64,000 nt of DNA from Candidatus Omnitrophota bacterium. Lineage in GTDB: Bacteria > Omnitrophota > Gorgyraeia > Duberdicusellales > 4484-171. A program made the translations under genes and the position numbers. Within the stretch, counting starts at the first letter, position 1; the number at the start of each line of letters is the position of its first letter. The stretch lies in the NCBI GenBank assembly GCA_024231025.1, contig JAAEQW010000341.1, positions 54,155-118,154 on the forward strand, given 5' to 3'. A model generated the notes under the pieces. That model made no database searches and was not told the DNA's origin. It saw only the letters and a program-made list of their open reading frames with translations. This document shows positions 8,148 through 64,000 of the stretch, one piece after another.

Positions 8148-8452
8148 ATTGTTTGACTCCTTGGTAGTATTGTGATACAGTATTGCAATACTATATTGGA
8201 TTACCCCGTATTGCTTTATTCTGAGCTATTTTAACTCGTTTCTTAATAAAATCAAGGAGATATATGTATAACTTCAATTTCTACCGCCAAAGCATAAAAT
8301 TGGGAGCAATAATTGCTTTGATTATATTGGTGATACAGATAATTTCCCTTGCGAGATAACGGGAGGGGGCAAGCCCCTCCCCTACAAAACAAAATAATAA
8401 TCAATGGATCGGGCGTAAAAAAATCCCCCATCCTTTTGGATGGGGGCGATTC

Positions 8453-8489
8453 TTGAAGATATTTTTGAAAATTGAAGACTTTTTGAACA
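8453..8489. repeat. 37-bp direct repeat, copy 2 (identical to 1..37)
   Basis: Exact match to window start; preceded by GC hairpins at 8361..8385 and 8424..8446. Confidence 0.8.
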
Positions 8490-8590
8490 TTTGAGCATTT
8501 GAGCATTGGACCGCATTGCCCCATTGGATTTTCCAATGTTCTAATGATCCAATGTTCCAATGCTCTAGCCATTTTTTTCGATGAAAAAAT

Positions 8591-8607
8591 TGGCTCCCCG
8601 GGTAGGG
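8591..8607. repeat. 17-nt duplicate of the tRNA-Asn 3' end (candidate att site of integrated island B)
   Basis: TGGCTCCCCGGGTAGGG here is identical to 20812..20828 (reverse complement of the last 17 nt of the tRNA including CCA); lies ~150 bp from the serine recombinase gene end. Confidence 0.65.
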
Positions 8608-8720
8608 GCAGAAATTACCTTAATAAAAACAATGGGAATATTTCTGCACTTCCTCGGGCAGTAGCCCTCGGTCGCTCAACAGCTGCCTTCGGCAGAGTTC
8701 GAGACCAAACGGGGACATAT

Positions 8721-8762
8721 AAAATAAAAATCCCCCGCAAAATGCGGGGGATATTTTATTCA
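8721..8762 (-). terminator. rho-independent terminator downstream of serine recombinase gene (probably bidirectional)
   Basis: CCCCCGC-aaaat-GCGGGGG stem flanked by A/T runs on both sides. Confidence 0.6.
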
Positions 8763-10369
8763 TGGCTCCCCGAAGAAACTTCAGGAACAATATCTCCCCG
8801 GAGCACCTGAGTAATATCGCTTCTAAACCTTTTAGACACTATACCAACTTGAACCTTGTCATTTCCTATCTTGATGTGTTGTAAAATCCAATTCAGAATA
8901 AACCTTTTCTGATAAAGTTTAAGGTGATCTTTAAATATCTCATCGAAAGAGCCAAGTAACCGCTTAACATCACCCTCCTCTAAAGACTGTACCTTTACGG
9001 CATTGATCTCACGATTAAGATGATCTATATTATCCATCATCTTTCTACGCCTATCATCCAATTCAGATAGCTTTTGCTCCACGAATGTCCTGCCTTTATC
9101 GATATTCATAAGATTATCCATAACTTTCTTGGCTTTAGCATTCACACTTTCAAGCTCAACGGCAAACACGCGTTTTTGCTCTTTAAGGCTGGGCAGTTGC
9201 CTGCTGAATTTCTCGTTTAGCTTTTCAGTAATCTTATGGAGCATAAGAGGAGTAGAGACGGCTGATTGCGTAAGGCGTTGAACGGCTAATTCGAGTTCCC
9301 GCTCCGGAACCTTAAATTTACACTCATCATTTGTACAGTAATAATAATAGTAAACTTTTCCGCTCTTGCCGTGCCCATTTCTTCCTTCCATTCTTGCACC
9401 ACATTGATGACAGCAAAGCACACCATTAAATATATACGTGTGTTTTGTAGGCTTTGCGCCATTATTCCGATGTTTGTAATTTTCTTTCAAGAGTTGTTGG
9501 GTTTTTTGGAACTTGCTCTCGTCGATAATAGCCGGCCAAACAGCCTTGCAAGTTGAATATCTCATTTTTTCCGGCAAAGATTCTTGTTTTTCAGCTTTAC
9601 GTTTTTTATTGATCTCTTTCATCCCAATATACGCCTTGTTGCTTAAAATCTTCAATATTGAACTATAGCAAAATTTCTTTGCCGGATGATATCTGTCACG
9701 ACGGGAGGTGTACTCTTTTGATAAGTAACCTTTTTTATTTGCTATTATAGCAGTTCTGACAACTGAACCGTTTTCAAGATAGGTATCAAATAGGAAACTT
9801 ACAACTTTAGCCTCCTTTTTATTAGGGATGAGATAACCTTTTTTGTTTTTATCTTCATCATATCCCAACAAAGGAACACCGCCATTAAATAACCCTCGTT
9901 GAGCTCGCGCATAAAGCCCTGAGATTGTTCGCTCGGAACATTGCTCTCGTTCAAATTGGTTTAATGCTCCCATTATCGTAAGGAAACATTTGCCCTGCGA
10001 CGTTGTTGTGTCAAACTGTTCCTTCAGGCAAACAAAATCTACTTTATTTTTATTGAAATAATCAACCATATCCAAAAGATCCCTTGTTGAACGGCTTATC
10101 CTCGACAAAGCAACGCACAGAACAGCATTGATCTTACCATCCTGTATGTCAGACATCATTCTAAGATACTCTGGGCGATTTGTATTCTTAGCAGAAATAC
10201 CTCGATCTACGTATGTGTCTACAATCACCCATTTCTGTTTAGTTGAGCTTGATTTCATCCTGACGTAATCTCGAAGCATCTGTTCTTGATTCTTGAGAGA
10301 CCCTTCTTCCAATTTCGCCTGCTTCTCAGTACTCACGCGTTGATAAAGGCTACATCTTTTTATTTCCAT
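8756..10369 (-). CDS. large serine recombinase (serine integrase type)
   Basis: N-terminal resolvase catalytic domain (YQRVSTEKQ with catalytic Ser, VALSRISR), recombinase domain, Cys-rich zinc-ribbon region (CCHQCGARMEGRNGH...YYYYYC) and C-terminal coiled coil; 537 aa. Confidence 0.85.
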   Translation of the reverse strand: MEIKRCSLYQRVSTEKQAKLEEGSLKNQEQMLRDYVRMKSSSTKQKWVIVDTYVDRGISAKNTNRPEYLRMMSDIQDGKINAVLCVALSRISRSTRDLLDMVDYFNKNKVDFVCLKEQFDTTTSQGKCFLTIMGALNQFEREQCSERTISGLYARAQRGLFNGGVPLLGYDEDKNKKGYLIPNKKEAKVVSFLFDTYLENGSVVRTAIIANKKGYLSKEYTSRRDRYHPAKKFCYSSILKILSNKAYIGMKEINKKRKAEKQESLPEKMRYSTCKAVWPAIIDESKFQKTQQLLKENYKHRNNGAKPTKHTYIFNGVLCCHQCGARMEGRNGHGKSGKVYYYYYCTNDECKFKVPERELELAVQRLTQSAVSTPLMLHKITEKLNEKFSRQLPSLKEQKRVFAVELESVNAKAKKVMDNLMNIDKGRTFVEQKLSELDDRRRKMMDNIDHLNREINAVKVQSLEEGDVKRLLGSFDEIFKDHLKLYQKRFILNWILQHIKIGNDKVQVGIVSKRFRSDITQVLRGDIVPEVSSGSHE

Positions 10370-18741: not shown

Positions 18742-19920
18742 TTAGTAACATTCTCCCCAAGTTTTACCTATCTTACAAGAAACGGTAAATTTCATACCTT
18801 TAATTTCTATCTCCATGATCTCTTTAATTCTTTGCAAGCTCTTATCAATTTCAAGATCGGGAACTATAACAAGTGCTGAATCATGAACTGTAGCGCTTAT
18901 CTTGAAACCTTCACTATGAAGTTTAACTAGGGAGAATTTAAGAATATCTGCAGCAGTGCCCTGAATGCAATGGTTAACAGCCCGCCTTTCAGCTTTCTTA
19001 CGATCAGTTATGTTGGAAGCATTTATATCAAGAAGAAATCTCTTACGCCCATAATAAGTTTCAGTAAAACCTGTAGAGCGTGCTTTCTTAATTGTTTCTG
19101 ACTTAAAACTTTCTATCTCAGGTATTTTAGATTTATATACGTCCATTAATTCTTGGGCTTCGCTTATTGATATATGTAGGTTTCTGGCTAGACCATTGGC
19201 TTCTTGTCCATACGCCAATCCGAAATTAAGCGTCTTGCCTAGCTTACGTTCTTTATCAGTAACGGAATCATACAGAACCCCCTTCATGTCAGCAACAACT
19301 TTCCTATGTAAATCCAACCCTTTAGCCCAACACTCCTTGAAATACACATCATCAGAGAGAGCGCTAAGTATTCTCAGTTCAAAGCTATTATAATCTGCTA
19401 TGATGAACGAATGACCACCATCTGCGCATATGATACCTCTAGCCACTTCAGGGATACTTTGGAAACTATAGCTTTTTGTGTATAATCGTCCTGACATGCA
19501 TGTATCTATGTACCTACAGAATATCTTACCTTTAGCTTTATCAGTAGCTTTATGAATTGCCTTCAGAGAGCTTAAGAGTTTCTCTAGGTTGCGGTAGGTT
19601 GCAATTTTATCGGTAAGGGGGTTATTGACGCCTTTAAGCACTCTCCGAGAAGTGCTGTACCGGCCTGTTCTCGTCCTCTTAGGATTAACCCCTAAAACCT
19701 TGAATAGAATATCGGCAACATCCCTTGAACTATTGAAGTTAACCTCACCTTGAATACCGAGTATTTGCTTGAGTTCTTGTTCAATTCCGTTCTTCTCTTG
19801 CAAGGTTTTCTGGATTAATTTATCAAGTTTAGGAAAATCTACGTTTAGACCGCGTTGTTCCATCGCTTGCTTAACGTTAATCATGTCGTGCTCTAGGTTT
19901 TCTATAATTTTACTATGCAT
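18742..19920 (-). CDS. stand-alone family-A (Pol I-like) DNA polymerase domain, no exonuclease domains
   Basis: Motif A IIADYNSFELRILSALSDD, motif B RKLGKTLNFGLAYGQ, motif C TVHDSALV, plus RRAVNHCIQGTAADILK; 392 aa covers the thumb/palm/fingers only. Confidence 0.8.
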   Translation of the reverse strand: MHSKIIENLEHDMINVKQAMEQRGLNVDFPKLDKLIQKTLQEKNGIEQELKQILGIQGEVNFNSSRDVADILFKVLGVNPKRTRTGRYSTSRRVLKGVNNPLTDKIATYRNLEKLLSSLKAIHKATDKAKGKIFCRYIDTCMSGRLYTKSYSFQSIPEVARGIICADGGHSFIIADYNSFELRILSALSDDVYFKECWAKGLDLHRKVVADMKGVLYDSVTDKERKLGKTLNFGLAYGQEANGLARNLHISISEAQELMDVYKSKIPEIESFKSETIKKARSTGFTETYYGRKRFLLDINASNITDRKKAERRAVNHCIQGTAADILKFSLVKLHSEGFKISATVHDSALVIVPDLEIDKSLQRIKEIMEIEIKGMKFTVSCKIGKTWGECY

Positions 19921-20015: not shown

Positions 20016-20480
20016 TTACGGCCTAACCTTTGAGTTTATAATATAAAACTCTTGTGCGACTAGATCTTTTGTGCCGATTTTCTTTATCAGGTAATACGAA
20101 GCTCCCCCTAACGGGTTATATCCTTCAACTAACGAAGTACCTCCGAAAAACTTTTTTGCTTTATTGTTGATTATCTCTGCATGCTTGGGATCGATTCGAT
20201 CGATAAGAGCGTGAATATGTATTCCGGCTGACGATGTACTGTGCCTTTCATAAAACACAAGACACCGAACAAAACTATCAAAGTATATTTCGTCATTCTT
20301 ATTGAGATATTTTATGAACCGCTTAAACTCTTTCTTGGCTGTCTCGTAAGAGACAAACTTTCTAAAATTAGCGTTGAAAAACAATGTCCACTCATAATCT
20401 CCCAACAAATACCGCCTATACGCCTCTAGAATTATCTGCCTCTTGTTCCATGCAAGGTTATCTTCGAGTTTAATCTTCAC
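20016..20480 (-). CDS. small HUH-endonuclease Rep-like protein
   Basis: HUH motif GIHIHALIDRI and downstream YY motif (GGASYYLIKKIG) typical of rolling-circle Rep or relaxase catalytic core; 154 aa. Confidence 0.5.
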   Translation of the reverse strand: MKIKLEDNLAWNKRQIILEAYRRYLLGDYEWTLFFNANFRKFVSYETAKKEFKRFIKYLNKNDEIYFDSFVRCLVFYERHSTSSAGIHIHALIDRIDPKHAEIINNKAKKFFGGTSLVEGYNPLGGASYYLIKKIGTKDLVAQEFYIINSKVRP

Positions 20481-20811: not shown

Positions 20812-21232
20812 CTGGCTCCCCGGGTAGGGCTCGAACCTACGACCTATTGGTTACAGTTACCCTCTAAGTTTCCTTAAAGACTGGACTATATCATTACCGT
20901 CCCGCCATGGGCGGGATACGGTATCAGGCGCTTCGACCCCGAAATTTCGGGGGCTACTCCCTCGCGGGATAGTCTCTGCACGTTCTCCGAATAATCGGAG
21001 CTTCGCTCAGGATTGCCATATTCTTACGAACTTAGGTTTCCCTGAATTCACCTGATTCTTCACTCTACAGTTTCCTGTAGAGGCTGCCATGCACCGAGAT
21101 CCTTCGACTCAGTCGACCTAAGGTCTCCTTCACTCAGGATCAATTCGGCTATATAATTTTTCTGCCGTTTTTGGCCTGAAAAATTATAGTCTCATTGACA
21201 GCCAACCGCTCTACCAATTGAGCTACCGGGGA
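20812..21232 (-). tRNA. tRNA-Asn(GUU) interrupted by a 345-nt group I intron in the anticodon loop (exons 21198..21232 and 20812..20852); CCA encoded
   Basis: 5' exon UCCCCGGUAGCUCAAUUGGUAGAGCGGUUGGCUGU and 3' exon UAACCAAUAGGUCGUAGGUUCGAGCCCUACCCGGGGAGCCA fold as a standard cloverleaf (U8, A14, G18G19, TTCGAGC T-loop; anticodon loop CU-GUU-AA). The splice follows U35 and the intron ends with G. Confidence 0.75.
20853..21197 (-). ncRNA. group I self-splicing intron within the tRNA
   Basis: Intron contains R-like element GUGCAGAGACUAUCC (plus 20965..20980 as reverse complement) and S-like element GAUAUAGUCC (plus 20882..20891), which can form P7 GACUA/UAGUC. Candidate IGS GCAG pairs with exon end CUGU (U.G at the splice site). 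No intron ORF. Confidence 0.65.
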
Positions 21233-21319: not shown

Positions 21320-21730
21320 CTATTTCTTTTTTATATTAGCCAAAACCCACTCGAATATTCTTTTAGTAGATTTTGCTACATCGTGGGCTTCTTTTTCGTG
21401 AATACTACGGCAGTCATATTGGATGGCGTTCTTTTTGGCAATAATCCTTTTCAGAGCAACGCTTTTTTCTTTGTCACCAGGTAAAGATACAGTCGCCATA
21501 AGGTCGCAAACATCTTTATGGTCTTGAGAGATGGACCTTGTGCCTAATCTATAGACGCAGATAGCATCAGCTGAAGAAATAACGCATTGTATGGCTAATG
21601 TTCCTACGGCATTGTAGTTCTTATGGTTCAAGGCAGAAATCATTTCTTCGTAATTATCTTCGGCCTTTTTAAGATATTGGTATGATGCCGCGGGATCTTC
21701 TTGTCTGGTTCTTATATTCTTTGGTCCCAT
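21320..21730 (-). CDS. HEPN-domain protein (toxin of a HEPN/MNT pair)
   Basis: R-x5-H motif (RSISQDH) in a helical context; 136 aa; directly downstream of the MNT gene. Confidence 0.6.
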   Translation of the reverse strand: MGPKNIRTRQEDPAASYQYLKKAEDNYEEMISALNHKNYNAVGTLAIQCVISSADAICVYRLGTRSISQDHKDVCDLMATVSLPGDKEKSVALKRIIAKKNAIQYDCRSIHEKEAHDVAKSTKRIFEWVLANIKKK

Positions 21731-35007: not shown

Positions 35008-36519
35008 TTAATCTTCGTGACGGCGTTCGCTTCCACGTCGCTCATCTGCCTCTCTTTGTGCTTGACGTCTTTCTCCTCTTCGTCTCTCAATTTGAGCACG
35101 GATATCATAAGCTTTGTCCTCAGAGATCTTAAAAGTTACAATAATGAGAACAGCAATCGTCGAAGTAACAACGGGGATACCAACGTCACAGATTCGCATC
35201 CAGAATAAAGCACTGACTGATTGGTTTAATTCCAATGCAACATCAAAACCTACCATGTTAATTAAGAAACCGGAGATAAGCGATGAAAGGGCTACCCCCA
35301 GCTTAACCATCCACCAATAAACAGCACTAAATGTGCCTTCGCGACGTTCTCCAGTTTTTAACTCGTCAAGATCACAAACATCAGCAACCATAGAATTCAT
35401 AAGCACAAAAAGAGATCCTAACCCAAAAGCTATAAAAGGAGCGCTAATTAATAACAGATAAGGGTTATTGGGATTATAGGCAATCCATTTTAAGGCATAG
35501 CCAAAGATCGAAATAGGGATTGTAATAAAAAAAGTCTTTCTTTTGCCTATATGTGTTGCTAGCCATGAAGTTAAAAATATTACTCCCACGCTACATAATG
35601 CACTAAATGAACCATACCAACCCAGCAACTTACCGCCTTGTGAATAAGCCTCGCCCATAGAGCCAGCCCCTTGGAAAATGTAGTAGAAAACAATATAGGC
35701 AGTGAAGGCAGATGCAAGCATAAACCCGCCAAAAATCAACAATGTAGCACCGCAAAGCTTTACAAAAGGCAAACACTGAAATGATGTAGCTACACCACTA
35801 AAAAACTTTTTTGTGACATTTTTAGCACCGCTAGTATCTGGTTTTGGTAAATCAGTAAAAAACTCTTTACTAAAAATAGCAGGAAGTACGCCTCCAATTA
35901 TAAGGCAAGCACCGATAACAATAGCAATAACTCGCACTCCATGCACCCCATCAGTAAACCAGGCTTTATTATGCATAATCATCCAGGTCCAAGGTGCGAT
36001 AAACCAAGGTAACTGACCAGCAAAACTGCTGACTGCCTGCAGACGTGTCCGTTCATGGTAATCCGGCGTCATCTCGTAGCCTAAAGCGATCCAGGGAATA
36101 GAAAATACTGTGAAGGCCAAGAAAAATAAAAGCTGAAAGAACAAAAAATAACCAACGTAAAACATTTCGCTTCTGCCCTTATACAATTGGAACATAAGAG
36201 CAAACAAAATACCGCCTAAAATAGCACCGACAAGTATTAACGGTCTGCGTCGACCCCAACGTGTTCTAAGATTATCTGAAAAGTATCCAGTGATAGGATC
36301 GGATATAGCATCAACAATACGCGGAAGAAAGCCAATAAAGCCGACTATCGCCGGATTTACGCCCAAGCCAAGGTTTAAAATCATAACCATTTGCCCAATA
36401 AAAGCTGCCTGGGCAGTATTAGCAAATGATCCCATACTGTAGGCTGTTTTTTGGAAGATGGAAACGCGGTCTTCACGTTTCGTAACGTGGTGATGCGGCT
36501 TACTAGCTACTTGCTCCAT
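35008..36519 (-). CDS. MFS transporter of the GPH (glycoside-pentoside-hexuronide:cation symporter) family
   Basis: GPH signature DAISDPITGYFSDNLRTRWGRRRP; 12 TM; charged Arg/Glu-rich C-terminal tail. Confidence 0.75.
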   Translation of the reverse strand: MEQVASKPHHHVTKREDRVSIFQKTAYSMGSFANTAQAAFIGQMVMILNLGLGVNPAIVGFIGFLPRIVDAISDPITGYFSDNLRTRWGRRRPLILVGAILGGILFALMFQLYKGRSEMFYVGYFLFFQLLFFLAFTVFSIPWIALGYEMTPDYHERTRLQAVSSFAGQLPWFIAPWTWMIMHNKAWFTDGVHGVRVIAIVIGACLIIGGVLPAIFSKEFFTDLPKPDTSGAKNVTKKFFSGVATSFQCLPFVKLCGATLLIFGGFMLASAFTAYIVFYYIFQGAGSMGEAYSQGGKLLGWYGSFSALCSVGVIFLTSWLATHIGKRKTFFITIPISIFGYALKWIAYNPNNPYLLLISAPFIAFGLGSLFVLMNSMVADVCDLDELKTGERREGTFSAVYWWMVKLGVALSSLISGFLINMVGFDVALELNQSVSALFWMRICDVGIPVVTSTIAVLIIVTFKISEDKAYDIRAQIERRRGERRQAQREADERRGSERRHED

Positions 36520-36586
36520 TGATTTCCTCCTAATAATCCCAAAAAAATTAAAATAAACCCCGATTTATAAGGCTATATTATAACAA

Positions 36587-36943
36587 ATGGCAATGCAAAT
36601 GACAACTAGTTTCAGTTGTCCTGCTGTCTGTGGTTACAGGGTTGATTATTTTCGGGGATTCTCTATAATGAAGGAAAATAATGTAAAAAATCAATATGAT
36701 CACGTTGAATTAGATCAATACATTGTAATGCCTAACCATATTCATGGCATAATAAATATTGTAAGGGCGGCAGATCTGCCGCCCCTACAAAATAATGATA
36801 ATCGATCGAAAATGATATTATCCAAAATAATCCATGGCATTAAATCTACCTTCTCCTTTCTTTATCAGGATAGGCGATTTTCGCCTATCCTGATATTATC
36901 TTTGGAAACTGGATTCCCAGCATTCAAAAAGTTTGCTTTTTAG
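36587..36943 (+). pseudogene. RAYT (TnpA_REP, IS200-like HUH transposase) fragment: middle part only, with embedded GC palindrome
   Basis: VELDQYIVMPNHIHGIINI (HUH motif) ... LSKIIHGIKSTF; palindrome AGGGCGGCAGATCTGCCGCCCCT at 36764..36786 inside the reading frame; N-terminal part is not RAYT-like. Confidence 0.5.
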
Positions 36944-37009
36944 GTAAAAACGTGCTAAATTTACATAAAAGACCTATAAAATATAAAAATTTGGACTTTC
37001 GCATATTAA

Positions 37010-37453
37010 TTGTTATGTTTAAAAACAAGGAAAGAAATGATTAAAAAATATTTAATTTTACTTATTTCAATTTTATTTATTGGTTGCTCTTTAGCGCAAG
37101 ATAATATAATCGATACAGAAGAAAAATGGAAAACTATCGTAAAAACAGAAAATTCGGGAAAATTCATTCTTATAGGAACCTTTCAAGATCGTAGCCAACT
37201 TAAACCTGGGGGGTTACGTGCATATTCTTCAGGAGTTTTGCACATTGGATCAGAAAAAATACCTATCCCATATTCTGACAATTATAAAAGTATGAACCTA
37301 GAACAATATAACAATAAAACTGTTAGAATGGAAGCTACTGTTCAGATTTTAGAAGAAAATGGGGACCCTTATCCAGAATTGAATCCCGTATCTTTTGAAA
37401 TGTTTAAAAATAGCATTAATAATATTAAAAAAATTGAGGAAATGAAAAATTGA
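37010..37453 (+). CDS. hypothetical lipoprotein
   Basis: MIKKYLILLISILFIGCS lipobox. Confidence 0.5.
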   Translation: MLCLKTRKEMIKKYLILLISILFIGCSLAQDNIIDTEEKWKTIVKTENSGKFILIGTFQDRSQLKPGGLRAYSSGVLHIGSEKIPIPYSDNYKSMNLEQYNNKTVRMEATVQILEENGDPYPELNPVSFEMFKNSINNIKKIEEMKN

Positions 37454-37506
37454 AAACATAACAACGCACTCCAGCTGACCAAAACCTGCGGTTTCGGCAG
37501 CTGAGT

Positions 37507-37960
37507 TTGAATGTTATACCCAACCAACAAATGCAACAATTTAAAACCAGAAGATCTACCCGATTAAAAAATTATGATTATTCCCTGAATGGTTATTATT
37601 TCATCACGATATGTACACATGAACACGCAAATATATTTGGTGAAATAATAAATAATGAAGTATCCGTAGGGGCCGATGGCTGTCGGCCCTCTATAGATGT
37701 AAAATTAAATGAATTTGGTTTAATTGTTGATGACGAATTAAAAAATTCTGAAATTATTCGAAACGAAATAAAATTAAACACATAATCATGCCTAATCATA
37801 TTCACGCAATTGTTATAATTCAAAATAATATCATAAAGGGCCGACAGCCATCGGCCCCTACAGATAAAATTAATCAAAATCAATCAATCTCAAGAACCTA
37901 TTTGGCAACGTAATTACCATGACCATATTATTCGAACAAAACATCATTAAACAAAATACG
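37507..37960 (+). pseudogene. RAYT (REP-associated tyrosine transposase) gene, frameshifted, with two embedded inverted GC palindromes
   Basis: N-terminus RRSTRLKNYDYSLNGYYFITICTHEHANIFGEI (TnpA_REP signature); in another frame IMPNHIHAIVI (HUH) and C-terminal WQRNYHDHIIR. Perfect 25-bp inverted repeat GTAGGGGCCGATGGCTGTCGGCCCT at 37666..37690 and its reverse complement at 37837..37861. Confidence 0.6.
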
Positions 37961-37994
37961 TGAATATATAGCCAGTAATCCCACAAATTAGCAA

Positions 37995-38279
37995 TTGGAC
38001 GCAAATAATATTAAAAATTATTCTGTAACCATATACGCAAAAAATAGGGAAAATATATTTGGTGAAATAAAAAATACAAAATATGTAGGGGATGGGCTTG
38101 CCCCATCCCGTATAGAATATCCTTACATAAAATTATCAATAGTCGGAACAATAATCAATAACCAATGGAATTACAAAACTACCCCCCCCTTACAACCACT
38201 TAATCAGCTCAGACAATTTCTGCTTTTCTTTAGGTTCAACTGGTTTGGCAGGATATCCAAGAGCAATAACGCTAACTAA
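37995..38279 (+). pseudogene. RAYT N-terminal fragment (third degenerate copy) with embedded GC palindrome
   Basis: NRENIFGEIKNTKYVGDGLAPS parallels ANIFGEIINNEVSVGADGCRPS of copy 2; palindrome GTAGGGGATGGGCTTGCCCCATCCCG at 38086..38110. Confidence 0.4.
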
Positions 38280-38681
38280 GCGCTCATCGCCCTCAGCTTG
38301 CGCAAAGGATGCAACTTCAGTGGAATAATCTTTCTTGTCACCGGCTATCCAGCAAGTTCCAATATCAAGGGCAGTAGCTGCAAGTAAAATATTCTCCGTT
38401 GCAGCCGAACAATCTTCAATATAATATTTAGTATCAACAGATAGCACCACTATCGCAGCGCTAGCACCAATCATAAACGCGCCATTAGGTGAAACCAGCT
38501 TGGCCAGCTGCTGAATCCGTTCTTTACCGGTAACAACCACAAACCGCCATGGCTGAACGTTGCGTGCAGTCGCGGCCAACCGCCCAGCATTTATAATTTT
38601 TTCAATACTCTCACGCGATATTTCTTTTTCACTATATTCACGCACTGAAGTCCTCTTGCTTATAACATCAAAAAAATCCAT
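38190..38681 (-). CDS. nitroreductase-family flavoprotein
   Basis: ISKRTSVREY ... ARNVQPWRFVVV and the C-terminal conserved core of the nitroreductase fold; 163 aa. Confidence 0.75.
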   Translation of the reverse strand: MDFFDVISKRTSVREYSEKEISRESIEKIINAGRLAATARNVQPWRFVVVTGKERIQQLAKLVSPNGAFMIGASAAIVVLSVDTKYYIEDCSAATENILLAATALDIGTCWIAGDKKDYSTEVASFAQAEGDERLVSVIALGYPAKPVEPKEKQKLSELIKWL

Positions 38682-49600: not shown

Positions 49601-52600
49601 AAGTTTCAATGTAGCCAAAATTAGCGACTCCACCCATATTGCGTTTGTTAATGTCATTATTCGTCTTGACTTTCGCATTGTTATAAAAAATGTCTCCACC
49701 TTGTTCATCAGGAATTGTCATCTTATTTGTACGCAAACAATTCATGCTCTCGTTTTTAATTTCGATTAAAGTATCACCAGGGGCAATCAACTGACCCGCC
49801 AAAGATGACGTTAAAGAATTAGTTTTGATGTAGATATTACTTGATTTTGCGGTAATTTCTTGATCAACCTTCATTACGCCAATATTTGCGCTGCCGCCAA
49901 GATCAGAAAGCTGTGCTTCCAGCATTGATTTTTCAGCTCGATACTTTGCCAATAGGCCTCTTAAGTCATCAGTATCATTAGTATCTGGAATCAATTGCGA
50001 CTCCAAATCAATAATCTCGGCGTTAAGCTCAATGATACGAGTATTGATGTTCGAAATAGATGTGGCATAAACTCCAATCAATGTTGTATTTTCATCAATA
50101 TCACTTTGCAATAGAACATTGTCATCAGTAAAATCCTTGTTTTGATCAGTTAAAGTTTTATTTTCATCTTGCAAGTCAACAATTTCATCATTGATCTCCT
50201 TGATCCTAGCCTTATCGTCTTTAGGGTCAAGGCCCGCTAATTCGGTTTGCAAGCCACTTATTGTTTGGTCGTTAGTGGAAATTGTTGTTTTATTAGTGTT
50301 GATTGTATTCTTATTGGCAGTAATTGTGTTATTCTTAGTTGTGTTATCATTTGTTAAATTAGTCTTCTTTGTTGTCTCATCGTCCCTTTGACTCTCTTTG
50401 TTAGTCTTTTCGGTTTCTAAACCGCTAATTTGATTAGCCACATCACCATTAGCATAGTTGCTAGGGGTGCCACTATCAACCTGATCTTTAATCGCATTAA
50501 TCAAAGCATCTAAGGTATCGATGCGTCCTTGAATATCATTAGGTAGGTTCTCGCTGTTTAGTGTAACTGAGATTCCATCGCTAGTGTTAGTTTCATCAAC
50601 TGTGCCATCATTGTTAATGTAAAGCTTTTTGACGTTTTCAATACCGACTTCAACTTTACCATCAATATTAATTGACGTTTTTGATATATCAGTTGAAGAA
50701 CCAGCCTTAATGTCTAACGACACATCTCCTCCGCCAACAAGATTACTAAAGAATGATCCGATTGCGGCTAAAACTTCACGATAAAGATCTTTTCCTACAC
50801 CATAACCTTTTACACTAGTGCTTCCTCTCTCGGTAAATAAACGAATATGACCAACACTTCTAAGGTCAGCACCGGAACCAATGTTAATGCTAGCTGCCTG
50901 ATCAACGCGTGCGTCAGCATCAGGTTTAGTCTCAACCGGAAACGCGGTTTTATTCCAGAGATCAGTATTGGCAAAAACATCAAAATCATTAACTGCGCCA
51001 TTATAATTTTGCCCAGTCATAAGGTTAATATCACCTTTACTCAAGATTAATGTGCCCGCTCCGATGCTAATCGCATTTCTAACAATCGTAGTTGATACAG
51101 AAGCACCTTGCGCCGCACCTGCCGCACCATAAGTTTTGACATTAACATTAGTTGAGATCGCAGCTTTTGTGCGCAGGGAGATATCAACATCGCCGATGCT
51201 TTCAAGACTTGAACCGCTACCAATACTAATTGTAGAATTATTCTTAGGATTATTAATGATTGATACCGCTTTTGCAATTGCAACCGCTCCTCCACAATCA
51301 AGTTTAACTTTATCGTACATGTCTGAGTAGTTAAATGCGCTTAATCTAATTGTTCCTGGATTAGATGGATCACCGAGCACTCTAATTATACTGTTATCAC
51401 CAATTGTGATATTAGTATCACCAAACACAGTTGATCCACTTTGCGCGGCAGCCCCACCAACAAATCCGCCAGCACCAGAATTGATGTTATATCCAATATT
51501 ATTTTTAAACATGTAGTTAGACGCGTCCATCTTAAAATCTAAAGATGTGATATTAGCATCTGCACCGAGGGTAGCATTAACGTCACTCGAGACATAATTA
51601 TTTGCCCAAGCACCACTCAAATTCAAAACTGCGGCACTTACGCTGTCGGCTTTAGAATTAAAGTTGGTTGAATGGCTAGCGTTAACTTTAACTTGCTTCA
51701 TGGTGTTACCGATGACATTACTACCAACCTTCGCTTCGGTATTAGCAATTGTCTGTGTTGCACTATCTGCAGCCTTTAGACCAACATTAATCACGCCACC
51801 AGAACCGGACTGGGCCTGTGCGTAATTCAAATCACTACCAATAGCCACAACTTCAAGGTCTCCTCCGATAAAAGTAACTGTATCGGCGACTGTTGCTTTA
51901 ATTGTGTTGTTAGAATTAGCCCGAGTCTTGTTGACACCAACAGCAATAATTCCTCCGTTCTTACCAGAAACATAAGCTTTCTGACTAGTAGTTGAATTGG
52001 CCGCAACTTTAGTTTTTCCTGAAACACCAATGTTAGTGCTTCCGCCAATCTGACTGCTAACTCTTGCTGTATTGTCAGCTAAACTTTCAGTACCTACTCC
52101 GCCTAAAAGCAAACCGCCGGATGCAGCCTTTGTTGTTGCATACGCCGCGTAGCTTTGTCCCGACTGTAATTTTTGCTCGGCAGTAACTGATAAGTTAGCA
52201 GCATTAATAAAGCTATTTGCTCCTGTGTAGGCAGTTACAATTGAGCTTATTCTAGCCTCGGCTAAAGAAATACCGACTGAACCAAGAATTGAAATCGCCA
52301 GTGCACCGCTTGATACATATGCGCGCGGATCAGTTGTTGCTAAAACTACGATATCATTAGCAGTTAAAATGTTTGCGTTATTACCAATGTAAGCTGAAAC
52401 TGTTGACGAAATAAGTGCCTCGCTGTCTGAACCTGATCCGGAAATTATTCCCGCGGCTCCGGCAGTTGTTTTAACAGTTGCAGTCTCGGTTGCATCGGCT
52501 CTTATATTCAAGCCGTTAACAGCTTTGCCGACGTCACGGCCAATGCGTGAATTATTTTCAACGCTAGCCTGTGTTTGACCATCAATGTTAACTTTTGCTA

Positions 52601-55600
52601 CTGACGCACCAACACCAATAGCACCTACCGCACAACCAACGCTTTCTACAACAACACTGCGATCAGTAAACGCGTGGACATTAATTGTATTAGCATTCTT
52701 TATGTTAGTGTATTGCCCAACTGTTGCCAGAGTCTTTGCGCTGTCATTAACAACTGCAACTGCAGCACCAGCACCGATGAATCCTCCGCCTCCGGCAAAA
52801 GCCTTGGCATTAACGGTTTCATCAGTATCGGCAATAACATCTACGTTACCAATAGCATCAACCGTTGAATACTCACCGACTGACGCGCCGGTACTTTGAT
52901 TAATACCAATTACACTGATTCCGGCACCGACACCCGCGCCCAAACCAACCGCAACCGCACCGGTTAAAGTTTTAGCGTTAACTGTATCTTGCGCCTTAAC
53001 TTCTACTTTTCCACCGGTTGTAATAGTTGTTTGATCACCAATTGACGCACTGGTTGCACTCAAGACGGCAGCTGAGGTATTATTCATATCACCGGCAACA
53101 CCAACGTTGGATGTCTTATCCTCGATAATTCCTTTTGCTTTTTGGTGACGGCTATCCGATGAATCCATCATCGCATTATTATCACGCGATGTATCTTTAT
53201 CAGCATAACTTGCTGTCTTACCATCACCAATACCCTCCTGAGTATCAGCATCTAGCGCACCACCAATAGTAATTACACTGATTGCCCCCCCAACACCAAC
53301 TGCCAAACCCGCACCGCCGGCAATTGTGTAAGAATCAACGATCTTAGTTGAAGCTGCGTTAACGGTTAGGTTTCCTCCGGCATGCAGTTTTACCTCATCG
53401 CCAACCGAAGCTACAGCTGAACTTCTAATAATATTTACATCGGTTGCAACACCGGCTCCGGCTGCAAGGCCTCCACCAACACCACCGGCAGAACTGCCGA
53501 TATTAGCGCTGTCACTTGCTTGAACGTTTACGTGTTGATTGCTTGCGGAAGATTTTTGATTAATTTTAGCATTAGTGCCAATAAAAGCCTGCGTAATTGA
53601 TTTAATAAGATTAACGCTAACTGCACCGGCAACTCCCGCCGCTCCGCCCAATGCACCAGAAACTATAAACTTTGTAATGTTAGCAACCGATACCGCCTTA
53701 ACTTCGGTAGTGCCTAGGGCATCAGTTTCGGCTTCATCGGCGATCGACGCCTGCGTTGTGCCTGTTACCTTAGTTACGTTTACAGTACCTGCTGCACCAA
53801 CCGCTAAACCAACACCAGCTGAACCAGCGGTGCTATTTACGCTAGTTGTATCAGACGCACGCACTCCTATTCCACCGGCATCAATGACTGCCTTGCCAAT
53901 TGCGGCAATTGTATCTTTAATAACATCAATGATTACAATTGTTCCGGAAACAGAAAATCCACCCGCAGCAACACCTACGGCGATTGATTTAATAATTGAG
54001 CTAGATACACTTTCAACATCAACATTATTATTGGCGTTAATGATTGATTCTCCAATCGAAGCTTCAACGGACTTCGCGATAACTACCGTATCAATAGCGG
54101 CACCGCCGGAAACGAATCCACCGGTTATCGATTCGGTATTCCCATCAACAACAGTTGCATCGTTTGCTTTAATCTTAACATTTTGATCACCAACACCATC
54201 TTTACCTGCAGAATTGATTGTTACGCTATTGCCAACAGTTGCTTTAGTCTCAGTTGCAACAACCGTTGTTTGAATTGACGCATTTACTCCGGCTAAAGCT
54301 GCCCCGCCAATACCTATCGTATCAACATCAATATTCTGAGAAGAATGGGCAACAACATTTAACCCCTTAACTGTACCAGGAATGTAAGTGCCTGCTCTGC
54401 CCAATGCATTGACTTGTGCATTGTCATCGATGTGTGCGTGAGTCTTATTTACAATAGTATTTACATTTAAGGTTCCACCAACTCCAACGCCCAGCCCAAC
54501 ACTTGCGCCTCCACTGACCGCGTTAAGGTCAACTTCGTCACTTGCAACCACAACAACATTACCTTCTGATTCAATATCCGCATCGCCAATACCAGCATCG
54601 GTCTCATTATCTAAAACATTAACCGAAATTACTCCGCCTAAGCCTCCGCCAAGACCAGCCGCTAAACAAACTGCGAAAGTATTAAAGTCCTCGTAAGAAT
54701 TAGCAAGCACACCAATCGTATGAAGTGCCCCGATATTAGCTCCGCTAGCAATATAAGCTAATGTCTTTTTAGCAACAACATTGGTTGAGCTGGAAATTCC
54801 AACCCCGCCCCCGACCGCAACCGCTCCGGCACCAATCTTTGTATCTATCTTTGAATCACTATCGGCAGAAACTATGACTGACTGATTCGATTTTCCGGTT
54901 GTTGTATTCTGATTAATGTCTGCATCATCAATATGGGCTAAAGTTTGCGATGTATCAACGACAACTGCGATCGCTCCGCTATTAGCCGCACCAGGTCCGG
55001 CAACAGCCAAACACCCAGCACCAGTTACCAACTCTTCATCCTCGATAGCATTGACGGACAATACCCCATCAACATCAACTATCGCGCCATCATCAATGAA
55101 CGCTTCAACTTTATTCGTTACAACATTAACGCCAACTGAAGCACCAAATCCACCACCCATACCGCCGGCTAAACTACCAACAAATAGCTGCGACTTAGTA
55201 TTGTCGCGAGCCTGAACGGTTAAATCATTTCCCGCCTTAACTTTTGCGCCGACACCAATAAACGCCTGAACTGGCGCATCTGAATTTTGAGCATTGATAT
55301 CATCGGTAATTTTGTAGCGATCCTGCTGTGCAGTATTTTGATTAGTCATATCTGTTGATGCTTGGTACTCATTGCCAACACCTTTTTGTTCTTCAGACAC
55401 ATCGTACTGTGACCATTCATCAGTCGTTGCGATGTTGTCATTTAAACTACCCTTTGCATCTGCATTCAATGGTCCGCCAACTACTGCAACACTAACGGCC
55501 CCGGCTAAACCCGCGCCAGCACCGATACCTGCGGTACCAACGTAAGACTCTAATTGTTTATTTGATGCGGCATCAACTAGTATGTCACCGGTCGCGTCAA

Positions 55601-58600
55601 CGAAACTATTTGACCCAATTTTCGCTGTAACAGAATTTCGAATTACATTTACATTTAAAGCAGCGCCGGCTCCAACCGCCAATGCACCACCAACCGAACC
55701 AACGATCGAAGCAATCGTTGCGGTATCGCTGGCAGTAACTTTTACATCAGTACCGGCAATGTTCTGATTAATTTTAGTATTGTTGCCAATTTCAGCCTGA
55801 GTTGTTGATTTTAAAACATTAACATTAATTGAACCGGACACACCAGCGGCACCCGCAAGACCGGCACCAATTGAACTACTGGTAATTCCAGCCTCTGAAA
55901 TTGCTGATACATGAGTTGTACCTGCCGCGTCAGTTTGAGCATAATCACCAATGTAAGCACGAGTTGTATTGGCAATAGTATTAACGCCAATTGAACCAGA
56001 CACCCCGGCAAAAACACTGGCGCAAAATGATGCAGTAAGCAGCAAGACGTCCATTTCATCATAAGCGGCAACCATGATGTCGCGTCCGGCCATTAAATTT
56101 GCACGGCCCGCAACACCAGCTGAAGTATCGGCAACGCCAACATTAACTCCGATTGCTCCACCTACACCAGCATAAAGTCCACCGGCAATATTACCAACAA
56201 GTGAATTCATCCGTTCGCTCGATTGAGCTTTAATTATAATATCTTCTTTAGCATTAACTGTTGAATGTACTGGAACACCTGATTTTAAATCACGACCAAT
56301 ACGCGCATGTGTATTTTTAACTAAAACTACCGGCGTAATCCCTACTCCAACACCCGCTCCGGCAATACCAATCGCGATTGATCCATTTGCACCATAAATT
56401 CTAGTATGATCGGCTGCCATCAGCATTACACTCTGGTTAGCTGCAGCGGCACTGTTGTTACTATTAATCGCGACATTATTGCCAACAAGGGCATTAGTAT
56501 TATTAACGACTGTAGTTAAAGCACCGGATCCGCCAACGCCAGCGACCCCGGAACCAGAAATACCAACGATCCCGTTAATAACAGTTTCATTGGAAAGTGC
56601 GGTAATTGAAAGACCTTTAATTGTAGTTTTATCCTTGCGATTGCGCAAAGGTGTAAGTTCTGAGGCGTTAAAACTTTCAGCGATTGAATCCCAGGCATTA
56701 CCCGGATCATCTTTGCTGCTTTCGCCAAACTTACCGCTCCATTCATCATCGCCAGGCTTATAACCGGCATCATTGGCACCCGTAAGAGTGCCGACGTTAG
56801 CTAAGTAACCCGCCGCATGACCGCGAGCGTTAACAATTGAATTATCAGCAATCTCTGCGCTTGTATTTTTAACGATTGTATTAATATCAAGCGTTCCACC
56901 AACTGACGCGGTTGCCGAAATTCTCCCCGATCCCGCAACATTAGTCATAAATGTGTCATCTTCGGCTTCTAAAGCAACATTACCCTCGGAATCTACAGTC
57001 GCCCCTTCCTTTATATAGGCGTGGGTATTATTTACCATGGTATTTAAAACCAAAACCCCGCCTACCGCGGCGGCACCTGCACCTTGAAGACTCAACCCTC
57101 CACTGGTTATAATCTGATTATCATGAGCGCCAATAATGACATCGTCATTAGTGTAGACTTTCGCATCTTTACTAATATTTGCGTAAGTGCTATCAACAAC
57201 CGCATTGATTACTGCGGTTCCACCAACACCGGCAGCGCCCCCAGCACTTGCAGCCCCACCAACTGAAGCAATCATCAAATCATTATCTGCATCGACGACC
57301 AAAGAATCACCACGATCACTTTCTTTATTGATTTCGGTACGCTCGCCAACCTCTGCCAAAGTATTTAGGATAATTACATTCAAAGCTAATGAACCCATTA
57401 CCCCGGCAGTTCCTGCTCCACCGGCAGCAACGGTTGCAATAACATGATCTTGATCCGATGTGGCAATAACTTGCGCGTCGCCTTTGACATTAACTTCTGA
57501 GTCAGGCCCAATAACCGCGCGAGTATCACGATTAATAATGTTTAGCGCCATTGCACCACCTACTGCGGCCGCGCCTGCACCTTGAAGCGATCCTGAAACA
57601 ACAGTTGCGAATGTTTTGTCGTGTGCTTCAACTGATAGGTCTCCTCCAACATTAAACGTATTACCTCCGCCGATAAAAGCAGATGTATTACCCAAAGTAT
57701 CGGGACTTCCTGCACCTGATGATGTTTGGAAAAACTCTGAAACAGTAATTTGGCTGTTTTCGTCAACGAAATCTGAAACAGTATGTTCAATGCCTTCAGT
57801 GTCAATGAATGTTCTATTACCTTCTTCTCCGAGTTGGCCATCGGTTTTTGATTTTGCGCTATCGCTATCTAATTGTGAATTAGGGGTATTGGTCTTGTTG
57901 CCATCTTCATCCTTACTTGCCAGGGCATCATTTGCATCGGCATTATCCATTGCCTGGCCAATTGCAACTACCGCAACTGCTCCGCCTACTGCAGCAGTTC
58001 CCGCGCCGCCTCCGGCAATACCTAAAGAATGAACCGCGTTGTCACTCTCACCATAAATATCTACATCTCCACCAGCATCAGCTAATACACCTGACCCAGT
58101 ATTTGCGCTTGTCTTATTTAAAATTATTGTGATGTCCGCGGCCCCGCCGATTGCTGCAGTCGATGACGCAGCAACGCTGCCCATCGCACTCAATGTGTTA
58201 ACCTTATCAATAGCTTGAATTTTTATATCCTGACCAGTGATATTATCGCTTTCTCTAAATCCAGCACTCTGGTTAACTTTAGTTCCGCTGTCAATGCGGG
58301 CGATAGTATCGGCCTTAATTACTTTTACACCTAATGATCCAGCCACTGCGGCATTACCACCAACTGATACGCCGGCAGCAAATTGATCAATATCTTCTTG
58401 TGACTGAGCTTTTACTCTGGTTTCACCTTTTGCATCAGTTGTGTTATTAGTTCCAATTTGAGCTCTAGTTTCGTTAACCATTACAGCAACAGAAGCGGCC
58501 CCGCCAACTGCGGCGGTCTGTCCACCGGCGATAACCGCATCAAGCGTTAAAATTTCACTTTCGTTTACTGCGTCTAAAGTTAGATCGCCGCTATCAGCAA

Positions 58601-61600
58601 GAAGTGTCGCGTTATTTTTAGTGTAAGTCTTGGTATTAGAATTAACTACTGCAATTGATGCCGCACCCTGCACACCAACTTGACCACCACCAATACCAAC
58701 GACTAATGAATCAAGATTTTCTGAAGATTGACTGCGTAAATTAATATCTTTGAGCGCTTTAACAATTGAATTTTCACCAATAAAGCTTTCGGTATTCTTA
58801 ACGACTACGGTTGTTGTTGCCGCGCCACCAACTCCAGCGGTCTTCCCAATTGAAATTTGCCCAATGAAATCATTGGCATCGGTGTAATCATAAGCACCAA
58901 CTGCAACTGATTGATTTGCTCCGGCGCCAGTTAAGTCTTCATTAATTCGCGCATTATCACCAATGTACCCTTTGGTTGTATTTACAATAACATTGGCAGC
59001 TAATGCTCCAGCTACTGCAGCATTACCGCTAGCAGCACCAGCAGCTATAAAGTTTTCAATATCTTCAGTAGAAAATGCCTGAACTGACAAACCTCTTTGA
59101 CCTTCGGTGTACTTTTCTTGTAAATGAAGTTTGCCTAAATCTAAACTTATATCTGTACCATCAGGAAGCGCAAGTTTATCAGCACTTAGAAGATAGTCTT
59201 CCATTTCACCGGTCCAGATAGCACGCTCATCACCTAACCCGCGAGCTGTAACTTGTGCTCCGTTACCTATATATGCCTTAGTGTTTTTGACAATAGTATT
59301 AATTGCCATTGAACCACCAACACCCGCTTCTTTACCAAAAGCTCCGGCACCGGCAATGATGTTAAGATCAGTTTCACTTAACGCATTAACATCAATATTA
59401 CCATCAGCAAAAACTTGCGCATTATCGTCAATAAATGCATGGGTAATATCAGTATTAACCTTAATTGAACCAGCCCCCGCAACTCCTGCAGATTTACCAG
59501 CAGCAGCACCGACGACAACACTAACACCCTCTTCCTTAGTATGAGCGCGCACCTTTACATCCCCTGCCTTATTATTTGAATCAGCGGTAGATTTTACCTG
59601 AGCGCCCTTACCAATAATCGCGCGTACAATCTTTGTAAATACGCCAACATCAGCTGCGGCACCAACTCCCGCGCCATCTTTACTGGCAGCTGCTCCACCA
59701 CTTACAGCAACGACGATCGTGTCATCATCAGCTTCGACGTTAACTGACTGACCATCACCTTGATAAAGAAGATCCTGATTTATCAAAGCATTGCCACCGA
59801 TTTTAGCTTCAGTAACCGTAGTAATCACATTTGTATTTAGCGATCCTGCAACACCAGCTTTTCCGCCGTAAGCGCCTCCGGCAGCAATAGATACTATTAG
59901 CTCATCACCTTGGGCATTTACATTAATTGCTTTTTTAGCATTAACCTGGGCTGATTCACCAATGGCGGCTGTTGTAATATTTGAGATAACATTAGCATTT
60001 ATTGATCCGCCAACGCCGGCTTTTCCACCAACTGATCCAGCAAACGCAACATTCACTAAATCTGTATCAGCCTGTGCTTTTAAATCTACGTCGTCTCCCG
60101 CCTTCACCTTCGCATTATCACCAATTTTTGCTTCAGTTATTGCAGTTGAAACCAATATGTCTAATACGCCGGTAACTGATGTACCCTCTTGACTTCCACC
60201 GCCTGATCCACCACCTGAGCCGCCGCCTGATCCACCAGTCGAACCACCGCCAGTTGATCCACTTTCACCTTCTGAACCACCCTTGAGCGATCCCCATGAA
60301 AGACCAGCAGCAAGACCAATACTTGTCAGTAATTTTTTACTCAACGCATCAATATCAACATTATCATCAACCGTAACTTTAGCCCGATCATCTATGCGCG
60401 CCGATATTATATCGGTATTCACAATATCAGCGGTAGATACACCAACACTTACCTTATTAGATACTGCAGCCGCAGCTGCAAATGTTGCGGCATCTGTATC
60501 AGCGCTGGAAGAAACCTTAAGTTCTTTAGCGTTAACCGTTGCATCTTCACCAACGAAACTTTCAAAAATATTCTCAAAGACATTAATCGCAAACGAACCG
60601 CTGATTGCGGTTTCGGCCTGACTCTTTGATGCTGCTGCCGTACCTGATACAGCTTCAGTATAATAGTTGTGTGACCTTAAATAGTTAAGCGGATTAAGCG
60701 CCTCTAGCCACTCAGCGAATGTTGTTTTTGTGTTTGACGCTCCTGGATCAGCTTGAGCTGTTGCTTGAGGTGTAAGTCCTGGATCTTCACCCATTACAAT
60801 CTTCTTAGCAGATTCCAGAAAATCAAAATCTTTCCAGATAATCGTGCCATAGATAAGTGGATCAACCCTTAAGCTCTTCGATGCAATACTAACTACCCCC
60901 GCAACATCAATGAAGGAAAAATTTCCTGCATAAGCTCTAATCCGATTAAGCGCGTGCAGTATCGCAAAAGCAGCACCTACCCCAACCTTTGCTTCATCAC
61001 CGGAGACTGATGTTGTTGCCCATGCTTTAGATGAGATTTTACTCATATCTTGAGCGTTTATCGTAACGTTATTAGCATTTGTTATCCTGCCGTAATCTCC
61101 AACTCCAGCTTCAGTCTTATTAATTGCGTTAGTAACTGCGAGCGATCCTGCGATACCGATTTTATTAGATTTAGCTGCAGCTATACCTTCGGAAGTAAGA
61201 GTTGATATAAAGTCATCATGCAGGTTATGGGTTGAAGTTGCGTTCAATTCAACATCTGCTCCACCAGCATCAATCGATGAACCAGTTGCAACAAGGCGCG
61301 TCTTACCATTGACTTCTTCATAGTCGCCCATTATTGCAAGGGTGTCATTGGTCATATTAGTAATTGCAACGCCAACACCAATCGCTGTTCCTCCGGCTTC
61401 CTTTTTTTCTTCCGGGGTTGGTTTGCCATTTATAGTTTGTTCAAGTTTCTGATCAATCTGGGCCCAGATAACTTTGTGCGGCCCGACAATTGCTGATCCT
61501 GAACCAAGAGTCTTTGCGTTATTGTTAGCGGTAGCTTTAACACTTACTGGACCGCCGCTTACAACTTCTACATCTTTACCAATTTGAGCAATTGTATCAT

Positions 61601-63908: not shown

Positions 63909-64000
63909 TTTTAATGTAACTTTAGCACCAGCATGTGTTTTGTGTGTTGAGTTATTCTCTGAATGAACCTTAATTGCATCTTCACTCTCAACACTTTGCG

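Follow-up and report, generated by a model that had tools for sequence, protein, structure and literature searches.

In-frame GC-rich palindromes in decayed RAYT genes of a Candidatus Omnitrophota contig, very probably REP elements of transposase subclass 2.4

The closest described relatives of the elements reported here belong to the tyrosine transposases associated with REPs (RAYTs, also called TnpA-REP; REP, repetitive extragenic palindrome). Subclass 2.4 of the TnpA-Y1 transposases, as delimited by Quentin, Siguier, Chandler and Fichant (2018, BMC Genomics 19:475; PMC6006769), is equivalent to RAYT Group 4 of Bertels et al. 2017 (PMC5581495). Table 1 of the former paper defines the subclass by the motifs NH[IFV]H, WQ and YIxNNP and gives a median length of 194 aa. 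Its text names it as a striking trait peculiar to the subclass that REPs are inserted in-frame within the tnpAREP genes, including "double foot" elements of the form GT[AG]G...C[TC]AC, and places the subclass in Cyanobacteria, Bacteroidetes and "various phyla". The superfamily of REPs with a GTAG foot is treated by Di Nocera, De Gregorio and Rocco (2013; PMC3733652), who report in the sections considered here that REPs also occur in-frame in other genes. Binding and cleavage of single-stranded REPs by the associated RAYT have been described for the E. coli TnpA-REP only (cited in PMC3733652; PDB 4er8). We analysed a 64-kb window (the whole stretch of DNA under study, 64,000 nt) of contig JAAEQW010000341.1 from a Candidatus Omnitrophota bacterium, in which an AT-rich spacer of 1.65 kb between two unrelated genes, at positions 36520-38189, holds decayed RAYT genes with GC-rich palindromes inside their coding sequence. 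In all likelihood this spacer is a graveyard of subclass 2.4 RAYT pseudogenes, and the palindromes are the cognate GTAG-footed REPs, carried in-frame in two permissive loops of the protein.

The spacer has a GC content of 31%, somewhat above the 28% given for the region in the initial annotation. It contains three RAYT fragments on the forward strand within 36677-38171, as that annotation had proposed and as the translations, tblastn and blastp of the relics all show. Copy 1 (36677-36865, +) corresponds to approximately residues 115-174 of the protein encoded at the homologous locus L002, as determined by translation, blastp and tblastn with the L002, L024 and L038 proteins. It is the middle part of a gene, with HUH codons (MPNHIHG) at 36728-36748 and without the N-terminus or the WQ and Y motifs. 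Copy 2 (37531 to ~38018, +) is a nearly full-length pseudogene with the N-terminus RLKNYDYSLNGYYFITICT. A stop codon precedes its HUH codons (MPNHIHA, 37788-37808), a frameshift and a deletion of approximately 45 aa lie ahead of the WQRNYHDHIIR motif (37903-37935), and a further internal stop is followed by the Y motif EYIASNP (37962-37982), where the frame is disrupted. Copy 3 (38019-38171, +; YSVTIYAKNRENIFGEI...NQWN) is an N-terminal part that matches approximately residues 66-115 of the L002 protein in tblastn and blastp. The three copies had been regarded as a single paralogous series. By best blastp matches and tblastn they stem from two RAYT lineages, copies 1 and 3 being of the type represented by P0036, P0045, L002 and L038, and copy 2 of the type represented by P0001 and P0006. 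Together, copies 3 and 1 make up one gene, whose two halves complement each other exactly across a break between NQWN and NVKNQY. The halves lie on the same strand in permuted order, 1.3 kb apart, with a terminator-like hairpin, a small ORF (open reading frame) and copy 2 between them. This arrangement could derive from an integrated circle opened inside the gene, from a block move, or from misassembly. A very decayed N-terminal relic was also considered at ~36550-36660 ("IRL...IFG" spacing in another frame) and was rejected for want of tblastn support at E values up to 10.

Four GC-rich hairpins lie in-frame in the relics at two homologous sites, site A after NIFGEI and site B after the HUH motif, in keeping with the original proposal of in-frame hairpins at homologous positions. 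The site-B REP of copy 1 (36761-36788, GTAAGGGCGGCAGATCTGCCGCCCCTAC) is a loop-less perfect palindrome of 10 bp that encodes (V)RAADLPPL. It is a near double-foot element (GTAA...CTAC) with a DNA folding energy of -13.6 kcal/mol (z -6.6). Copy 2 contains both a site-A REP at 37666-37689 (+), GTAG+GGGCCGA tggctg TCGGCCC, which encodes VGADGCRP, and a site-B REP at 37838-37861 (-), GGGCCGA cagcca TCGGCCC+CTAC, which encodes GRQPSAPT. The latter is the exact reverse complement of the former, with its GTAG foot on the reverse strand, and the two form the perfect 25-bp inverted repeat that had been noticed at the outset: a perfect core of 25 nt (34 nt at 94%), whose arms are separated by 138-146 nt. 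The site-A REP of copy 3 (38085-38109, +; GTAG+GGGATGGG cttgc CCCATCCC) encodes VGDGLAPS. Each window REP has a 5' GTAG foot, a 3' CTAC foot, or both, with one foot at each of the two copy-2 sites. All four hairpins had been described as perfect palindromes; this is true of the copy-1 hairpin only, and the other three have stems of 7-8 bp with loops of 5-6 nt. As single-stranded DNA, the four hairpins fold with energies of -8.3 to -13.6 kcal/mol (z -3.8 to -6.6); when the solo hairpin at 8361-8385 is included, z runs from -3.0 to -6.6. There are 15 GC-rich hairpins in the 64-kb window, four of them in this 1.5-kb stretch, compared with 0-1 by the same criterion after a mononucleotide shuffle of the 64 kb.

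A Pfam scan of the relic peptides returned sub-threshold or spurious matches only, so the identity of the relics was established through their homologues. With a reconstruction of copy 2 as the query, 4775 homologues were retrieved, the best being "transposase" or "RayT" proteins of 178-201 aa from metagenome-assembled genomes (MAGs) of Candidatus Omnitrophota. A profile of 44 homologues (alignment A2) matches E. coli TnpA-REP (PDB 4er8) with an E value of 1.5e-6. An AlphaFold (AF2) model of the intact homologue P0007 (pLDDT, the per-residue confidence score, 80) has matches to 4er8 and to the transposases of ISDra2 and IS608, and Foldseek returns 4er8_A and 2xma_A with an E value of 2e-6 and a probability of 1.00, which gives the Y1 transposase fold for this intact homologue, as distinct from the relics. 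The M, N, H and H residues of the HUH motif are invariant in alignments A1 and A2, and H88 and H90 sit on a strand spanning residues 88-95 of the model. Y160 and N164 do not vary in alignment A2, and P165 hardly does; these residues form the class-2 signature YxxxNP with the catalytic tyrosine in a C-terminal helix. The best NCBIfam match is NF047646 (REP_Tyr_transpos), which scores 66, 64 and 44 bits where the cut-off is 80. PF01797 scores 13.8 bits with copy 1 (cut-off 23), and precomputed PF01797 matches are present in many homologues. Sub-threshold scores of this kind are expected for a divergent subclass with inserted loops. In the intact relatives, FGEI is followed by VGADGCRP(D) and HUH by G(R/G)QPSAPT; each of these peptides is the reverse-complement translation of the other. 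The residues that the REPs encode in P0007 (41-48 and 101-108) are modelled as low-pLDDT coil between conserved strands and helices, away from both the HUH strand and the tyrosine helix.

The same architecture extends across the family. We surveyed 80 loci from many phyla, 74 of which have a recognisable ORF running from HUH to WQ. A perfect stem of at least 8 bp is found between HUH and WQ in 56 of the 74 genes, and the density of stems is 5.1 per kb in this interval, approximately 1 per kb in the rest of the gene and 0.47 per kb in the flanks. The common in-gene form is a 28-mer, GTAGGGGC-N12-GCCCCTAC. The homologues contain 26 in-gene 28-mers with the double-foot pattern GTAG-N20-CTAC, and 23 of these are perfect palindromes. 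In the 28-mer alignment, 98.8% of cells pair and nine of the 14 pairs have changed on both sides; none of 500 shuffles matched this pairing, and no slid register came near it. Two reading frames are in use, GTA GGG GCN... (VGA...PL) in 29 cases and xGT AGG GGC... (RG...APT) in nine; the third frame holds TAG. Identical 28-mers occur in proteins that are just 53-64% identical elsewhere. The same 28-nt REP (e.g., GTAGGGGCGGTTCGCGAACCGCCCCTAC) is found in L030, L037, L049 and L070, and identical REPs are likewise shared by L001 and L011 and by L066 and L080. The genes with identical REPs sit in MAGs assigned to Calditrichaeota, Nitrospirae and Chloroflexota and encode proteins that are 57-61% identical outside the loop. 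Site-A REPs are present in several further phyla too, and the same stems recur within the ±3-kb flanks of 19 of the 74 genes. We looked for intact homologues that encode the same peptides in non-palindromic DNA, and the intact homologues keep the palindromic DNA. The pairing of 99%, the many double changes and the use of two reading frames together indicate that the in-gene hairpin is conserved at the nucleotide level.

The Omnitrophota clade to which the window relics are related is represented by eight distinct intact genes (L081-L090, where L084 duplicates L083). Site A in these genes reads GTAG-GGGCCGAC ggct GTCGGCCC-GATA, or has the stem GGGCCAAC/GTTGGCCC, and in the protein D/R and N/W covary, giving VGADGCRP versus VGANGCWP. 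Site B, on the opposite strand, reads GTAG-GGGCGGCC ggct GGCCGCCC-GATA, or has the stem GGGCGGAC/GTCCGCCC. Sites A and B in the clade are the same element inverted, with the stem differences compensated. When the clade and the window are taken together, pairing is 99% and four of eight pairs have changed on both sides. A near-exact reverse-complement pair of sites A and B occurs only in window copy 2 (0 mismatches) and in L089 (one mismatch). This alignment and that of the 28-mers uphold the earlier observation that pairing is kept by compensatory changes. The accompanying claim that such changes imply selection on the hairpin exceeds the data, since replacement by another REP or templated correction would also keep the stems perfect. 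In addition, setting copy 1 beside copy 2 compares two RAYT lineages that have different REP types, not paralogues that have diverged.

The REPs found inside the genes also occur outside them. An exact-match scan of metagenome contigs with the site-A REP as query gave 57 matches, 20 in RAYT-like genes and 37 elsewhere. A GGGC...GCCC-CTAC hairpin starts within 20 nt of 18 of the 57 matches, and 13 of these 18 second hairpins are GGGCGGCC agcc GGCCGCCC, the exact site-B stem. The typical extragenic dimer is GTAG-GGGCCAAC ggct GTTGGCCC-GATAGC-GGGCGGCC agcc GGCCGCCC-CTAC. The GTAG and CTAC feet of the extragenic dimers lie on the outside, their spacers measure 5-15 nt (mostly 6), and their halves have different stems; inside the genes, the REP halves are 138-170 nt apart. 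REPs A and B of the genes are counterparts of the left and right parts of this dimer. Up to five REP copies are present on one 40-kb contig, and solo extragenic copies identical to the copy-2 site-A REP are present in the low-GC contigs L101, L102, L112 and L116. A solo REP also occurs in the window, at 8361-8385 (-; GGGAGGGG gcaag CCCCTCCC+CTAC), outside any recognisable RAYT ORF. An unrelated MAG contains the same REP (GGGAGGGGgcaagCCCCTCCC-CTAC; hairpin of 21 nt) at site B inside its RAYT gene L038. A search of the 64-kb window for an abundant REP family found GTAGGGG and CCCCTAC only slightly above expectation. It is on the GTAG/CTAC feet, the exact copies that related metagenome contigs carry outside RAYT genes, and the dimers with the site-B stem that we base the assignment of the hairpins as cognate REPs, an idea first raised in the initial annotation. 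The solo REP is intergenic and adjoins ORFs at 8756-10369 (-) and 7938-8147 (-), which we read from their translations as a putative serine recombinase and a putative XRE-type regulator, respectively.

In Omnitrophota-like contigs, some intact genes have partial RAYT duplicates directly downstream, and the breakpoints of these fall at or within the in-gene REPs (L083, 1900-2172; L084, 1593-1976; L088, 1131-1196). In L088, the GTAG of REP A is the exact start of the partial copy and lies one base past the annotated gene end at 1130. At L084, the start of one fragment falls within the REP B loop, and the end of the larger copy lies just past REP B. Relic boundaries in the window were tested against the hairpin positions and do not coincide with them, unlike those of L084 and L088. 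A further contig, L108, carries at ~8400-8870 a RAYT ORF with an in-frame deletion of HUH and REP B (...EELKNT joined to NNINRKQTLSS...), in a population rich in extragenic REP dimers.

The explanation that we prefer is that REPs habitually sit in-frame inside subclass 2.4 genes; here they would occupy two permissive surface loops, one (site A) directly after (N)IFGEI and the other (site B) following the HUH strand. The palindromes are DNA-level elements, GTAG-footed single-strand hairpins of the form that RAYTs are known to recognise, and peptides such as VGADGCRP and GRQPSAPT would be by-products tolerated as disordered surface loops. The stems would stay paired while their sequence changes because the elements evolve as REPs. 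What the data show is the identity of the fragments, that the hairpins are conserved and covary, that they have extragenic counterparts, and that the P0007 model puts them in loops. We infer the force that maintains the hairpins, as well as any role that they may have in intact genes; upkeep may come from the constraints of RAYT recognition, from replacement or conversion by other REP copies, and from templated correction within the palindrome. Since the RAYT genes of the window are dead, their hairpins are relics, probably leftovers that do nothing now.

Several points weigh against this explanation. The link to cognate REPs rests on related contigs, not on the source genome. NCBIfam and Pfam scores fall below the curated cut-offs for the relics and for intact relatives. 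Five REP-type hairpins are present in the 64-kb window, of which four lie within the relics, and outside the relics only that at 8361-8385 is convincing. Binding and cleavage of the hairpins by a subclass 2.4 RAYT are predicted activities. The near-universal position of the in-gene REPs and the perfect 28-mers across distant proteins also exceed what simple tolerance of insertion would give, and leave room for a function. Positional constancy and nucleotide-perfect conservation somewhat favour one in intact genes.

Such a function might be that of a master copy linking the transposase to its substrate after horizontal transfer, or of a self-recognition site that limits expression (through the RAYT or an RNA hairpin) or excises the catalytic segment. 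The presence of a hairpin at the same position in most of the surveyed genes from many phyla argues for it, as do identical 28-nt REPs in proteins of 53-64% identity, the match of the in-gene REPs, which bracket the HUH-coding segment, to the extragenic dimer halves, the partial duplicates of relatives that break at or in REPs, and the L108 ORF that is without HUH plus REP B. However, 18 of the 74 genes are without a strong hairpin between HUH and WQ, no REPs bound the L108 deletion, equal conservation would also result if the REPs of the genome homogenised those in the gene, and the genes of the window are dead. Sites also vary in copy number and length, with tandem REPs in L015, L019 and L073, as insertions would give, and overall a function for the REPs in intact genes is a tentative and rather unlikely proposal. 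Another explanation is that REPs have inserted repeatedly and independently into two insertion-prone, permissive loops, each lineage gaining a REP of its own, so that the "compensatory" changes are replacements of whole elements and involve no ancestral maintenance. The two reading frames, the multiple or tandem REPs and variable insert lengths of some genes, and the in-frame insertion of REPs into unrelated genes (reported in the sections of PMC3733652 considered here) are all consistent with it, as are the unrelated stems of window copies 1 and 2, which follow from their different lineages. It is harder to reconcile with the finding that REP type tracks protein subfamily, as in the four GGTTCGCGAACC genes that have the downstream KRKPLGRLIGAFKTVSTK motif in common, and that mean identity is higher among proteins that share a REP type (0.58 versus 0.50). 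Moreover, close Omnitrophota genes differ in single stem pairs (G:C versus A:T) while loop and feet are identical, which looks like substitution. Repeated insertion on its own is a possible account of the family-wide pattern, if a doubtful one.

There are two further explanations. The palindromes might be a by-product of selection on a peptide rich in G, A, P and R, or have arisen by chance in GC-rich codons of an AT-rich gene, and VGADGCRP and GRQPSAPT do look conserved in the protein alignment. Yet different genes use two frames to read the same DNA, the peptide changes as stem positions covary, identical sequences lie outside genes, the peptides are low-confidence coil in the P0007 model, and shuffles give 0-1 such hairpins per 64 kb. 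On these grounds we reject peptide-level selection and chance as extremely improbable. A more far-reaching idea is that the gene is built around its own REP dimer, with A and B the left and right halves of a GTAG-A-(~6 nt)-B-CTAC element split by 150-170 nt that encode the HUH core. Extragenic dimers might then be derived from genes that have lost their interior, or the gene might descend from a dimer that captured coding sequence. If so, the catalytic segment would itself be a RAYT substrate, and this could explain both the partial copies with REP breakpoints in relatives and the scrambled relics of the window. We consider this idea improbable as matters stand.

The relic spacer contains other features that are not part of the RAYT genes. 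A stem-loop at 36863-36895 (+) has a perfect 15-bp stem, a 3-nt loop and a T-rich tail and is terminator-like. It is without GTAG or CTAC feet and is not of the REP type. We considered whether the REP hairpins might themselves be intrinsic terminators and rejected this, as REPs are generally without T-runs and a simple terminator consensus fits only the copy-1 REP (on the reverse strand) and the unrelated hairpin at 36863-36895. A small ORF at 37010-37453 (+), 147 aa from a TTG start, sits between the relics and is not RAYT-related. It has no significant Pfam match. An internal ATG of this ORF would give a peptide beginning MIKKYLILLISILFIGCS..., which, judged from its residues, may be a lipoprotein signal with a lipobox. 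The spacer is flanked on one side by a 503-aa ORF (35008-36519, -), which we take to encode a membrane transporter, and on the other by a 163-aa ORF (38190-38681, -), presumably a nitroreductase-type gene.

Elsewhere in the window, a full-length group I intron (Rfam RF00028, 101 bits) is present at 20862-21106 (-), between a 136-aa ORF (21320-21730, -) and a 154-aa ORF with a HIHALI motif (20016-20480, -). Downstream of the intron on the same strand is a 392-aa ORF (18742-19920, -), which we read as a candidate C-terminal part of a family A DNA polymerase. ARAGORN found no tRNA gene in the 64-kb window. The GC content of the window rises from ~0.38 to ~0.44-0.46 over the last 12 kb (~52000-64000).

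The finding explains the palindromes that encode VGADGCRP and GRQPSAPT in an AT-rich pseudogene cluster as a published feature of a RAYT subclass. Hairpins maintained inside a RAYT ORF had at first been thought unusual; in-frame REPs within tnpAREP genes are described in the text of PMC6006769 as a hallmark of subclass 2.4. The relics carry the features by which that subclass is defined, so the core of the finding was already known, and because the pattern has been published for the subclass, the window should not be flagged as new biology. A full-text literature search found no other paper on in-gene REPs. The text and Table 1 of PMC6006769 mention neither a further in-frame site for REPs upstream of HUH, following FGEI, nor in-gene REPs as the halves of extragenic dimers, and exact conservation of REPs across distant proteins was not found there. 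The additions made here are modest: the second in-frame site upstream of HUH, the match to dimer halves, and the identical 28-mers in proteins that are 53-64% identical. If in-gene REPs act as master copies or self-targets, this would be relevant to the persistence of REP/RAYT systems and to the way in which horizontal transfer seeds them.

Compared with subclass 2.4 as set out in the text and Table 1 of PMC6006769, the window relics have NHIH, WQRNY and YIASNP (one mismatch, in a pseudogene), and their relatives have YISNNP or YIxNNP and lengths of 178-201 aa. The REPs are GTAG-footed or double-footed and in-frame, lie for the most part in the variable loop that joins the HUH strand to the helix after it, and are widely spread taxonomically. 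A site-B REP is present in window copies 1 and 2 and in 56 of the 74 homologous genes. The window differs in that it contains decayed fragments only, from two lineages, and Omnitrophota are not named in those parts of the paper. The REPs treated in PMC3733652 are likewise short, GC-rich, GTAG-footed palindromes that occur singly and as dimers with outward feet, and they include in-frame coding insertions, sometimes at the same site in orthologues (recB). The intragenic REPs reported there lie in repair and replication genes, whereas the RAYT genes are flanked by REPs or terminal inverted repeats (TIRs); the sections considered here, and term searches of that paper, contain no description of REPs inside a RAYT gene.

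The E. coli TnpA-REP with its REP/BIME elements (the REPtron; 4er8) and the Pseudomonas REPIN-RAYT systems have in common with the present family the Y1-HUH fold, a GTAG-footed hairpin substrate and inverted pairs of REPs. A REPIN is a pair of inverted REPs that folds as a whole into a long hairpin and is the unit of replication. In those systems, which belong to subclasses 2.2 and 2.5 and have DH[LF]H HUH motifs, the REPs are extragenic and flank the gene, whereas in the window and its family they lie within the ORF and the pair is split by ~150-170 coding nt. The Rickettsia palindromic elements (RPEs) offer a parallel of another kind, as selfish palindromic DNA tolerated in-frame in surface loops of functional proteins. 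RPEs are longer, carry a CGTC tag (as given in the sections of PMC3733652 considered here) and are without a dedicated transposase, and they do not sit in the gene of a mobilising enzyme, as the REPs of the present family do.

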